Shown: positions 52,536 to 58,500 of the stretch, piece after piece
How the letters are laid out: each line of letters opens with the position of its first letter
Numbering within the stretch: the first letter of the stretch is position 1
From: Adineta vaga
Lineage: Eukaryota > Animalia > Rotifera
Assembly (NCBI GenBank): GCA_021613535.1
Contig: CP075496.1
Coordinates: forward strand, 10,478,001-10,542,000
Length of the DNA stretch: 64,000 nucleotides
Reading direction: 5' to 3'
Position numbers and translations under genes: made by a program
The notes under the pieces: generated by a model
Seen by the model: only the letters and a program-made list of their open reading frames with translations
What the model was told of the DNA's origin: nothing
Databases searched by the model: none

Positions 52536-55500
52536 ATGCCGATGAAACGGGGCCATGTGTCAGCTCCTCAGAACACATTTATTGATACAATTATACGTAA
52601 ATTTGATTCACAAAGTATGTTCATTCATTTCATATTATATTTCACTAAGTTTCAATTGAACTAGATCGACGTTTTCTTATATCAAATGCGCAATTAGCGA
52701 ATAAACCAATCATTTATTGTAATGATGCATTTTGTGAATTAATTGGTTATTCACGTGCTGATATTATACAAAAAGCATGTACATGTGAATTTCTTTTTGG
52801 AAATGAAACAAGTGAAAAAGCAGTTAAACAAATTCGACATGCTTTACAAGGCAGTGATGAGAAAGAAGTTGATATTATTTTATATAAACATAATGGTATA
52901 TTTTCTTTTCTTTAATTTATTATTCTGACTTTAAATATTAATTAAGAAAATATGAAAAGACAAGAAAAAACTTATTTCCTTTCATCTTTATTTAGGCATG
53001 AAATTTCGATGTTCAGTACTTATCGCTCCGGTGAAAAATGAACTATGCAATATTATTCTATATATTCTGGAATTTACAGAAAATAATGATCGTAATCAAC
53101 AACGACGAATGCGTATGTTACACTTTCTCTGGTTGTTTATAAAAGAATGAATGAAATTTTTCTATATTTCTTCTAGCAAAAATTCGTGAATATCCAATTA
53201 ATCCATCAAGTATGTGTTTCCATGTAGATCGTTTGTTTTCTTTTTATATAATGATATTTCTTTAGTGGGTATACATAATCGTTCATGGTTACATATGCTA
53301 AATCCATTAGCACGACATAAATCACGTCGATCACATGATATGACAACGACGGGTATAAGTGATTTAGATGGTTCTTCTGAAGCTGATCCACTTGGTTATA
53401 TCGGTAAAAGACAATGCTATTTGCTGATAGGTTTTTTCTTTGTCTCTCTCTCTCTCTCTCTCTCTCTTCGTAATATAGATAAGCATTAGGAAAATCATTT
53501 GCGTTAAGTGCTCAATTGTCATTCTCTATTATTCTTTGTCTTTTCTTTCTCATTGAATAATTGTTCATGACATAAGAAACGTACAAGAATTAATTTGATT
53601 CTATTTAAATTACGATTGATTAGATTCATTTTTTTTCAAAAATGACTTTAGAAAGAGAAGAGAACAAAAAATTGCATTTACATGATTTGTAAACCAAAAG
53701 AAATATTTAATCACGAAAAATATGAAGAAAAGAAGGATTCTGTTTGAGTACATGTTTGAGAAAGAAGGGAGTACTTTGGAAAATTGTCAGCATTGTTCAT
53801 TTTATTATTGTAGCATTAAATCATAAAAATACAACGACAAGTATTCTAATGGATGAAACAAATCCATTACCTTCAAAACATTTAACATCAGATTATGAAA
53901 TTAGTCGACAATCATCAACAAGTTCAAATATTTTATTGAAACCTGATACTAATGTTTGGAATGCAAATTCTAGTGATGTAGAAACAATAAGAAATAAATC
54001 GCCAAGTTTGAGTAATATTGCTGGTAAATCGAGATAAAAGACGTTTCGTTTCTCTTCACTAGACAATCAATTTGTTTTTATTTTATTTCAGAAACTGTTT
54101 TGAAAAAAGAAAACAAAGAATCAAAGAAGAAAATTAAATATAGATTTCTACCTAACATACCCAATCGTATTGCCCAAATTCTTTCCTTAGGTGAAGATAT
54201 TGTTCCTGATTATCGTTTACCTGACACGCGTCGTATTCCGCGTTCCATTATCCTTCATTATTCACCATTTAAAGCTGGTTGGGATTGGTTAATTTTATTA
54301 CTTGTTATTTATACAGCAATCGTTACACCATATACAGCCGCATTTTTAATGCATGAAGATGGATCTAATAAGCAACGGTCTCGTCCATCACGTGCATTGA
54401 ATGTCATTGAACTTATTGTTGATGTTATGTTTATTATTGATTTATTGGTTAATTTACGAACAACATATGTGAAACATAATGAAGAATTAGTAACACGTGC
54501 AAATAAGATAGCGAAACATTATTTAAAAGGATGGTTTTTGATTGATGTTACAGCAGCCATACCATTTGATATACTTTTTTCATTATTGCAAACAAATGGT
54601 GGTGGAGAATCAACAACATTAATGGGATTATTAAAAACAGCACGTTTATTAAGATTAGTACGTATTGCAAGAAAACTAGATCGATATTCAGAATATGGTG
54701 TGGGAGTTTTAATTTTATTAACGGCTACATTTGCACTTATTGCACATTGGCTTGCTTGTATATGGTATGCAATTGGTCGTCTTGAACGAAATAATCAAGG
54801 TAAAGATTATCGTTCATATAAAACTTTTCCATACTAATGAAATTTTCTTTTAATATACAAAGTATAAGATATTATAACTATTAATAGTTGAAAAATATTT
54901 AGAGAATCAATATTTTGAAATGATCGTATTGAATTTTCATCCCTTATACATATGTCTACAAATAAAATGTTTCTCTTAGGCAATGAACGATTAATTGGAT
55001 GGTTGGCAGAATTAGCTAATCATACACATCAATATTATAATGAATCGGATCCGACATCTGGTCCGACAAAAACATCAAAATATATAACCGCACTTTATTT
55101 TACTTTTTCATCTCTTACTTCAGTCGGTTTTGGCAATGTGAGGTGCGCGCAATCTATCCTATATAAAGATCATTCTCTCCTCTAAACTATTATCTTCCTC
55201 TAGTCCAAATACAAATAGTGAAAAGGGTTTCTCCATTATAATCATGCTCGTAGGATGTGAGTTTTCTTGGTGTTTTACTCGTTCATTTGTATATGTTTAT
55301 ATAGTTGATGTTGTTTTGTATCCGTGTATGCTTAGCTTCGTGTTTTTAGGATTACGTATAACGTGGCTTGATGAATTAGCACGCATATCTGGTCAACCAT
55401 ATAATTGTCCGTTTGTAAACAAATATAATGCGACACTTTTGTTAGATCAAACATGTTCTGGAGGGCCAGATCTTCGTTCAAAATATATTACTGCACTATA

Positions 55501-58500
55501 TTTTACTTTTTCATCACTCACATCAGTCGGATTTGGCAATGTAAGAAAAAGTTCTAAATTGATATAAATCTATCTGAATTTCTATATATATATATATCTA
55601 GGTTAGTCCTAATACCAATTCGGAAAAGATTTTTTCCATTTGTATTATGTTAATCGGATGTGAGAGCAAATGCATGAGATGAATTAAAAAAAACGCAAAG
55701 CATGTGACTGTTGTGGCTTTTTCTGTGTATCACAATTGCCAGATAATTATTCTGTTGTATATATATCTAATTATGATCTTCTTTTCAGCATTGATGTATG
55801 CCAGTATATTTGGTAATGTTAGTGCTATTATTCAGAGATTATATTCGGGTACAGCACGTTATCAAATTCAAATGCTAAGGTACTTTTTTATATGAATATA
55901 TTTCAAATAATATTTTTTAAATAGAGTAAAAGAATTTATTCGTTTTCATCAAATTCCTAATCCACTTCGACAACGATTGGAAGATTATTTTAATCATGCA
56001 TGGAATTATACGAAGTAAAAAAAAAATGAAAAATGTGTTCTCGATTTCAAATATCGTATTCTTTAGTGGTATTGACATGAATATGGTGCTTAAAGGTTTT
56101 CCCGAATGTTTACAAGCGGATATTTGTCTTCATTTAAACAGTCAATTATTAAAAAATTGTCTCGCATTCAAAGGTTGAATTCTTCAATTATGATCATTTG
56201 GATTAATTGGCTGAATTTTCATTTAGATGCTAGTGAAGGTTGTTTACGAACATTTTCAATGAAGTTTAAAACAACTCATGCGCCACCTGGTGATATCATA
56301 ACCCACCGTGGAGATATTTTAACATCATTATATTTCATATCGCGTGGATCAATTGAAATTTTAAGAGAGGATAATGTTATTGCTATTCTTAGTATGTCTA
56401 TGAAATTATTTAGACAAGTCAAAAGATGATATGATTTTCTTGATTTAGGTAAAGATGATATTCTTGGAGAGAATCCTTTGTTGTACAGTGAACCAGGCAA
56501 ATCAGCGTTTAATGTGCGAGCATTAACATATTGTGATTTACATAAAATCTTACGTGATGATCTATTGGAAGTTATTGATATGTATCCAGAATTTGCACAA
56601 AGCTTCTGTGCAAACTTAAAGATTACTTTGACATTACGAGATGTATGTATTGATATTGAATAAAAAGATTATAGAATATTTCTTTGATATCTTTTTTCAA
56701 GGAAGAATTAGTGACAAAATCGAATGAATGTCGTTCAAAATATTTTTTACATCCTGAGCAATTTCGAGCAAGTTAGTAATGAAAGGAGAGAAATTTAGTT
56801 GTTCTATTAGTTTCTTTTTTTCTTCGTTTAGGTACGTCATGCAATCGAACAGACGATGAAAACATATCAATTATGAGTCCACAATTTGATGATTATCCCA
56901 TTGGAACAGGTAAGACTATTACAAAACAATTCGATATTTTATATAGTTTTAATTAATAACTCATAGTGAGCTAAAATATAGAATTTCGAAAAACACACGT
57001 TAATCAGCAACACAACTTGCTTAGATAACATTCTCAGACGAATAATAATCTGTACACTCGATAAAAATATAAAATATTGTTCGAAATTTATTTAATCATC
57101 GGCGAAAATATTTATTATTTAAATGATATATGCTGGAATAATTAGAATGCTTTTGCGGAAAAAAAGTAACACAATAGGTGAAAATACACAAAGACTATGA
57201 GGATTTTGTACATAGTAGTTTTATAAGAAATGAGAATTTTTTAAACAAGTGGAGGCTTGTTTGTATCTGTTGTTTTGACTTCAATTTTTGCTGCTGACGT
57301 ATCTCCATGAGGTGCCTTGGAATCATGTGATGCTGATACATTATGAGCTGTACCTGTTGATGATGTGTGCACATCACCTTTAGCTTTAAGTTCATCGGCT
57401 ATAAAACGAAAAGATACAATTGACTTAGTAGAACAAAACATTTTAGTGGATTTACCTTTCTGTTGAACATCATGTTTTACTTCTAATCAAAAGAAAACAA
57501 GAAACTATATTCATATCTTTACGTTTAAATGTATTTTATACCTTGTCCTTTATTTTTTGCATCTGTAGCTAATTCATTTGCTTTATCTTTCGCTTGATCA
57601 ACTTTATCTGATGCTTGTTTTTTCAATTCATCACCTAAAATATACTAAGTAGATATTGAAGAGAATAAAAACAAGTTTTTTTCCTACCTTTTTGTTGTGC
57701 ATCATGTTTGACTTCTAGATATGAACAAAAGGAAGTCAATCAAATAGAAAATGTATTTGATAAGAAGTCAATAATTCATACCTTCGCCTTTCTTCTTTGC
57801 ATCAGTTGCTAATTCGTTTGCTTTATCTTTTGCTTGATCGACTTTTTCCGATGCTTGTCCTTTCAATTCTTCTCCTGTTCGACGTAAAAACATTATTACA
57901 CTAAGATTTTAGATTCTTTTTCTTCTACCTTTTTCTGCAACTTTATCGGCTACATCAGAAGCTAGATAATTAAACAAAGTATGTTTTCATTCTTTTTCTT
58001 GTTACAAAAGAAATCTACCTTTTTCTTTTGCTTCGCCTGCTAATCCAGTGAGACTGAAACAAAACAAAATAAATGAAGATAGACATGTAAGAGAAGGAAA
58101 GTATTTTGTTGAATTAAAATACCTATGAATAGCTTCTTGTGCCGAATGAACAGTAGCTGAACCAACTTCCGTAGCTTTTTCCGCAGCCTAAAGAAAATAA
58201 AATCATAGAGAAAATTTCGTATACACGAAAAACTAACTAACCCAATGTCCAGCAGCACTAATAGTTTCACCAACATAATTAGCTGCAGAACTAGCTGCAT
58301 TGACAGCAGCTGCTGGAATCTGTTGCACAGTTTCCACAACCTAATTAGATAAATAACTATCTGAAAAATAATGTATAAAATTTTAACGTACTGTATGTCC
58401 AATTTCTTGTACTTTTTCAACTGCAATATCTTTAGCATGAATAGCACTTTCAATGATTGTATTTGCTGCTCCTTCAGTTGCATCTTTTACTTCTTCAAGT

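Follow-up and report, generated by a model that had tools for sequence, protein, structure and literature searches.

Alternative pore exons are already known in the NALCN, Cav3 and lobster Shaker channels. Shaker of the lobster Panulirus, a six-segment K+ channel of the Kv1 type whose turret is very short, reportedly undergoes alternative splicing of its pore region via single pore exons, as is said to have been described by Kim et al. in 1997; we know of no two-exon unit or split-codon stop in it. In this study, we analyzed an ERG (Kv11/KCNH2-like) gene of the bdelloid rotifer Adineta vaga, which lies on the plus strand at positions 52536–56911 of a 64,000-nucleotide (nt) stretch of contig CP075496.1 (assembly GCA_021613535.1), hereafter referred to as the window. 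Between the exons for transmembrane segment S5 and for the distal part of S6, this gene carries two tandem pore cassettes of two exons each, named A and B, and it likely yields two functional, regulated channel isoforms through them.

Voltage-gated channels are enriched in tandem alternative exons (PMC9741552). Similar to the rotifer ERG gene, NALCN possesses tandem mutually exclusive exons (15a/15b and 31a/31b) that cover the re-entrant pore loop and proximal S6, and its pore exons arose more than once (PMC3557258), as may also be the case for ERG. In NALCN, however, the filter residue changes, whereas the filter of rotifer ERG is identical in both forms and the turret changes. Exons 12a and 12b of invertebrate Cav3 are likewise alternative turret and pore-helix exons, whose short and long forms differ in cysteine number while other residues are variable (PMC4436565). 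Different from the rotifer gene, Cav3 is a four-domain Ca2+ channel, its single alternative exons end before the filter and the resulting change of selectivity was measured (PMC4436565). The rotifer unit consists of two exons of a tetrameric K+ channel and spans the filter and proximal S6. Mutually exclusive clusters of the unc-32 7a/7b type in Caenorhabditis elegans are similar to the rotifer gene in having UGCAUG in their flanking introns, which are also relatively long, an intervening intron on which UNC-75 acts, and back-up by nonsense-mediated decay (NMD) (PMC4165533). In C. elegans, NMD dependence was reported with exons whose length is not a multiple of three and not for those whose length is (PMC4165533), whereas the rotifer cassettes are multiples of three and create their stop at a split codon.

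For hERG (KCNH2), which is the closest match among solved structures, no alternative pore cassette was found in the literature searched. Nor did the matches listed in the open-access literature include any report on splicing of ERG pore exons or on a rotifer ERG, a scope that leaves out most subscription journals and all supplements, among them those with the gene lists that belong to PMC9741552 and PMC5740500. An earlier, sequence-only reading of the window had known of no mutually exclusive whole-pore cassette in ERG genes; within this literature it holds for ERG, but as a claim of novelty it was overstated in view of NALCN and Cav3 (PMC3557258; PMC4436565) and of lobster Shaker. What is new here is the occurrence in ERG channels, a unit of two exons, a stop formed at a split codon, and an intron that slid by 5 nt.

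Gene Identity and Architecture of the Pore Cassettes

The gene was delimited by a tblastn search of the window with P0002, an annotated A. vaga protein that is 100% identical to the S1–S5 exon and whose model uses cassette A. P0002 matched PAS_9, Ion_trans and cNMP_binding of Pfam, all above their cut-offs, and its top match among solved structures was hERG with 902 bits, compared with 552 bits for EAG. The N-terminal PAS domain, the six-segment channel domain (S1–S6) and the C-terminal CNBHD that characterize ERG channels are all present. Moreover, each cassette corresponds to about residues 580–648 of hERG, and both have the GFG filter and serines at the equivalents of hERG positions 620 and 631. 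Judged by its sequence, the gene is an ERG (Kv11) member of the KCNH family and is less close to EAG. Another A. vaga protein, P0036, is encoded on a different scaffold, is 87% identical and has a B-type cassette in its model. Given that A. vaga is a paleotetraploid whose homoeologs are about 13% apart (PMC8494291), the gene of P0036 is presumably the homoeolog of the ERG gene in the window.

All features of the gene lie on the plus strand. The common exon for S1–S5 (54093–54799, start approximate) ends with a phase-1 donor that joins either A1 or B1. Exon A1 (54980–55142, 163 nt) encodes a short turret, the pore helix and the GFG filter, and exon A2 (55204–55256, 53 nt) encodes the linker from the pore to S6 and proximal S6. 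The intervening intron (55257–55349, 93 nt) is followed by exon B1 (55350–55540, 191 nt), which encodes a long turret, including a variable loop bounded by cysteines at about 55406–55456, and a second pore helix and GFG filter; exon B2 (55602–55659, 58 nt) encodes a second linker and proximal S6. After an intron of 129 nt (55660–55788), both paths enter the common exon for distal S6 and the start of the C-linker (55789–55879), which was defined by joints in RNA contigs and by translation. These four exons and cassette sizes of 216 nt for A and 249 nt for B had been proposed from the sequence, and all four are indeed bounded by AG and GT. Both cassettes run from phase 1 to phase 1, and translation confirmed that either one alone keeps the frame open from S5 into distal S6. 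Joining A2 to B1, on the other hand, fuses the terminal T of A2 to the start of B1 and creates a TGA at the split codon, also as predicted.

The sequence-only reading had further noted a core that is identical in protein and differs at many synonymous sites. This core comprises 30 codons, 11 of which differ synonymously between A and B, and the last 40 codons of the two cassettes show 14 synonymous and three residue-changing differences. The internal intron of A is 5 nt downstream of the position of that of B, and its phase is 2 rather than 0. Thus, A encodes the shared Val-Ser 5' of its internal intron while B encodes it 3'. At 55138–55148, A1 ends with two overlapping donors 5 nt apart, of which the upstream one (GT at 55138) is at the intron position of B and the downstream one is the slid phase-2 donor. 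This arrangement looks like a frozen intron-sliding event and is the same in eight of eight loci. The alternative unit is two exons with their internal intron instead of the single exon that is usual for mutually exclusive exons (MXEs), and the cassettes behave as an MXE pair in a two-exon variant.

Splicing of the Two Cassettes

Seven of 24 listed sequencing runs were examined, all as assembled contigs (X9, X12, X13, X14, X15, X18, and X19). None of the listed runs is on record as RNA; X9, X13, X14, X18, and X19, which come from three studies, were recognized as RNA-derived by their spliced joints. For cassette A, the joint from S5 to A1 of the gene itself (54799>54980) was found in X9 and X13, the joint from A1 to A2 at the slid donor (55142>55204) in all five spliced runs, and that from A2 to S6 (55256>55789) in X18, X19, X9, and X13. 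The entire A path was contained in single contigs of X13 (record 4, 723 nt) and X9 (271 nt). For cassette B, S5 was joined to B1 (54799>55350) in X18 and X9, B1 to B2 (55540>55602) in X9 and X13, and B2 to S6 (55659>55789) in X9. Contigs of a divergent gene, which presumably come from the homoeolog, showed a B-type path in X9, X13, X18, and X19; X13 and X19 also yielded a fragment of the A type with 22 differences. Hence the claim of two pore isoforms holds at the RNA level, with all A-only and B-only junctions in contigs and both types from the homoeolog, and each of the five junctions named for checking, including that from A2 to B1, was present in contigs of at least one run.

Mutual exclusivity, as first claimed, was borne out in part. 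The bridging junctions by which MXEs are recognized in PMC5740500 occur in both directions, 55256>55789 in four runs and 54799>55350 in two. A contig of X14, however, joins A2 to B1, so exclusion is leaky and not absolute; this contig falls under the exception made in PMC5740500, since the join creates a premature stop (TGA). The joint that skips both cassettes (54799>55789) was not among the joints listed for the five spliced runs, whose contigs indicate presence only.

The contigs of X12 and X15, which are from one sample, are unspliced and continue from A into B. Because these contigs bridge the two cassettes and seven of seven spanning metagenomic loci show the same tandem, the tandem is not an assembly artefact, which the sequence-only reading had named as one way in which it might fail. 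In an unspliced contig of X15 (depth 3), the base at 55437 turns a leucine of the B loop into arginine, which might reflect allelic variation or an error.

Conservation and Origin of the Duplication

A scan of metagenomes that covered 21 of 64 parts yielded 55 loci. Seven bdelloid-type loci spanned S5 to S6 and two had B at the start of their contig, which together with the window gave 10 loci. In all seven spanning loci, which included both homoeolog lineages, A preceded B and exon sizes were identical, apart from a B1 that was 9 nt longer in the second lineage. Double inclusion created the TGA, and the slid donor of A1 was present, in all eight loci including the window; B was intact in 9 of the 10.

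Cassette A, cassette B or fusions of the two were found in gene models of A. steineri, Rotaria socialis, R. magnacalcarata, R. sordida, and two Silwood species, while the model of A. ricciae had A only among the matches listed. Two filters were carried by 8 of the 35 bdelloid-type protein matches listed. In P0004, P0011, P0014, P0015, P0022, P0025, P0028, and P0031, the annotation merged the two cassettes into proteins with two pores, and such fused models arise via cryptic splice sites or read-through of the intervening intron.

In a phylogenetic tree, the A and B cassettes formed separate clades with support of 100/100. Each clade contained both lineages and, therefore, the duplication is likely older than the genome doubling. 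The cassettes are probably specific to bdelloids, because the Brachionus model has a single pore and three open reading frames (ORFs) of one cluster close to this model extend from S5 through proximal S6 without an intron, monogononts being sampled by proteins and ORFs only. A second pore was absent from 17 of 17 non-bdelloid metagenomic loci that spanned S5 to distal S6, and the listed isoforms of Mytilus (15), Pomacea (8), Biomphalaria (12), and Dimorphilus (3) had one pore sequence each.

Second pores outside bdelloids were screened for among the best 150 representatives, 10 of which had more than one matched stretch. Three of these (P0411, P0415, and P0426) and P0432 were rejected as split single pores, and P0202 and P0203 were set aside since their copies are identical and likely artefacts. 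A second, divergent copy of the pore helix, filter and proximal S6 was observed in models of a Portunus crab (P0208) and Trichinella spiralis (P0206). Similarly, the ORFs of P0342, P0375, and five members of one cluster (P0445–P0449) have a second divergent copy from pore helix to S6, as models or intron read-through; the gap between the copies of P0342 is about 16 codons. These protein-level hints suggest possible independent tandem pore exons outside rotifers, in the crab, Trichinella and P0342/P0375.

Selection on the Cassettes and Predicted Consequences for the Channel

Ratios of nonsynonymous to synonymous substitution rates (dN/dS) were calculated as summed pairwise Nei-Gojobori values, the pairs of which are not independent, and were 0.06 for cassette A (eight loci), 0.10 for cassette B outside its loop (nine loci) and 1.05 for the B loop (seven loci of equal length). 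Cassette A and most of B are under purifying selection, in agreement with the earlier suggestion that both copies are selected; a cassette that is never spliced in or evolves neutrally, which would have spoken against it, was not observed, as both are spliced and both are constrained. Within a locus, dS between A and B was 0.7–2.4 with synonymous sites saturated, and there is thus no sign of recent conversion.

The two turrets differ in how they vary. The A turret had 12 variants, which differ at a few positions. The middle of the B turret, in contrast, had exactly two cysteines, 11 to 18 residues apart, and at least one N-x-S/T sequon in all 37 distinct variants. We propose that a disulfide bond between these cysteines would close the loop into a glycosylated cap, within which the sequence can change freely. 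In an AlphaFold model of the B isoform P0005, which was built on a 40-row alignment and is poor overall (mean predicted local distance difference test score 53, predicted template modelling score 0.34), strands 524–528 and 538–542 hint that the two cysteines are on a hairpin.

Both cassettes keep the pore helix, the filter and the equivalents of W585, F617, S620, N629, and S631 of hERG, and both have glutamate at the position of hERG N588. They differ, consistently within clades, at the equivalents of hERG 587, 591, and 592 in the turret helix and at three positions of proximal S6. The turret helix governs inactivation in hERG (PMC2229555; PMC6992539). As the filter and pore helix are common to both and the turret helix differs, the two isoforms would differ in inactivation or in the access of ligands from outside. 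They may also assemble into mixed tetramers, as the sequence-only reading had suggested.

The strongest alternative holds that both isoforms conduct nearly alike and that their key difference is in trafficking, glycosylation or extracellular binding via the B cap rather than in gating. The shared pore helix, filter and hERG-equivalent residues, the shared glutamate and the evolution of the B loop at a dN/dS of about 1 are all consistent with it. The clade-consistent differences in the turret helix and proximal S6, however, speak for different gating, as does the high impact of the turret segment in hERG (PMC2229555), and we consider near-alike gating a serious but rather unlikely explanation.

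Proposed Control of Cassette Choice

The intervening intron ranged from 79 to 113 nt in eight loci and exceeds most constitutive introns of the gene, which are about 46–59 nt. This length, together with the observed splice from A2 to B1, indicates that exclusion is not steric. Pairing of the docking-selector type was assessed coarsely with 24 intron-pair duplexes of eight loci; only one of the 24 had five or fewer of 100 shuffles as stable, and no pair was consistent among loci.

Two motif patterns were found in the introns. A GCATG motif occurs within 45 nt of the donor of B2 in all 10 loci, which share ancestry, with 16 copies in total. In the window, it is at positions 13 and 41 of the intron after B2. 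By shuffling, its presence there has a chance of 1.5–3.5% per locus, and the motif was absent from 33 other cassette-side introns and occurred twice in a further 2,683 nt of non-coding sequence. In most loci, the distal GCATG is followed by another conserved motif. The density of TGT in the intervening intron was 7.3–9.7 per 100 nt in eight of eight loci, compared with 0–3.2 in three other cassette-side introns; this UG-rich intron, which also has YGCY close to the B1 acceptor, is a candidate regulatory element. We take the GCATG after B2 to be an RBFOX-type site and the UG-rich intron to be a CELF-type site. This assignment is backed by a survey of C. elegans, in which UNC-75 and RBFOX control mutually exclusive exons with NMD as a back-up (PMC4165533).

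Each cassette is spliced alone between S5 and distal S6, which likely gives two working isoforms selected by cell type. Cassette choice may lie with RNA-binding proteins: a factor of the RBFOX type would act through the GCATG motifs downstream of B2, and one of the CELF type through the UG-rich intron. The stop created by double inclusion is predicted to route A+B RNA to NMD. Because exclusion is non-steric and leaky, reading-frame traps would back up the choice. Of 24 exon combinations, which included the upstream donor of A1, four were open: A, B, the skipping of both, and A1 from its upstream donor with B2. In A. steineri models, the glycine at the junction is replaced by glutamate (2 of 41 proteins), a B1 start which by implication would still yield a stop on A+B.

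The fourth open combination would give a third, hybrid isoform with the A turret and B proximal S6 through the upstream donor at 55138. Its open frame and a G that preserves this donor in eight of eight loci are in line with such an isoform. However, invariance is common in A, where 7 of the 28 fourfold sites do not vary among loci, and no 55137>55602 joint of the gene itself was found in the two spliced runs examined at 94% likeness; a joint at this position was rejected as evidence, since its depth is that of the B-type contig of the divergent gene and it is gone at this likeness. A hybrid isoform is improbable.

Still less probable is an expression switch, in which regulated A+B splicing or intron retention silences the gene via NMD or makes a truncated dominant-negative subunit. 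The A2-to-B1 join in X14 and the stop in eight of eight loci would suit such a switch. So would the retention of the intron after B2 (55660–55788) in contigs of X9 and X14, the latter with the next downstream intron already spliced out. A poison role, however, requires neither a pore, filter and S6 of B at a dN/dS of 0.10 nor two fixed cysteines, and B-only junctions occur in both homoeologs. The last alternative, that B is a duplicate in decay or that the tandem is due to faulty assembly, could draw on a broken B core in one locus (L005) and on the identical-copy duplications in the models of the unrelated genes P0202 and P0203, but it is ruled out for the window by the RNA contigs and metagenomic loci and is almost certainly wrong in general, given the saturated divergence of A and B, the splicing of both cassettes, the unspliced contigs that bridge them and the mostly intact B.

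Several points weigh against two functional, regulated isoforms. The contigs show only that a junction is present and carry no counts, tissue or strand. Several joints have sides of 24–27 nt, which is under the 31-letter bar, and the B path of the gene itself was assembled from overlapping contigs. The A2-to-B1 contig of X14 is an exact match of 242 nt that covers A1, A2, and 24 nt of B1 (joint 55256>55350, depth 2.7). It is the sole A contig of the gene itself listed for this run, which has no A2-to-S6 joint among those listed, and double inclusion may therefore not be rare. The product that skips both cassettes is in frame and free of stops. The base that decides the stop does not vary among the 10 loci, but neither do 9 of the 28 fourfold sites in B, and thus its invariance is not above background. 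Due to the shared ancestry of the loci, the motif counts are not independent, and the structural model of the B isoform is poor. Finally, the B1 core of L005 (975–1075) is garbled, A/T-rich and without a donor, with the B1 start and B2 intact, which reflects either a mistake of assembly or genuine degeneration and loss of B from one copy.

Two functional, regulated isoforms remain the explanation that we favor. A more specific version is only tentative and perhaps somewhat doubtful as a whole. It holds that a near-frozen, bare turret A alternates with a disulfide-closed, glycosylated and fast-evolving B cap that adjusts inactivation or screens off the mouth of the pore; that RBFOX/CELF factors pick the pore by cell type; that the split-codon stop and the slid intron lock the units; and that tandem pore exons arose independently in the crab, Trichinella and metagenomic animals. 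If true, pore swapping would be a recurrent and overlooked trait of the ERG family. In ERG channels, both fast inactivation and the pharmacology of the outer mouth depend on the turret, and the effects of turret length, cysteine pair and glycans could be measured in one background, because the matched pair, which likely predates the bdelloid genome doubling, differs only there. For splicing, the gene offers a compact, supported two-exon alternative unit that is guarded by frame traps although both of its units are multiples of three. For annotation, it means that public bdelloid models omit one isoform or combine both in a single protein with two pores.

Other Observations

A third, more distant channel transcript matched a short part of the C-linker exon (about 56098–56138) in X9, X13, X18, and X19. 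On the minus strand, a convergent neighboring gene at about 57200–59500 encodes a repetitive protein rich in alanine, lysine, aspartate and glutamine, which may resemble desiccation proteins of the LEA type.

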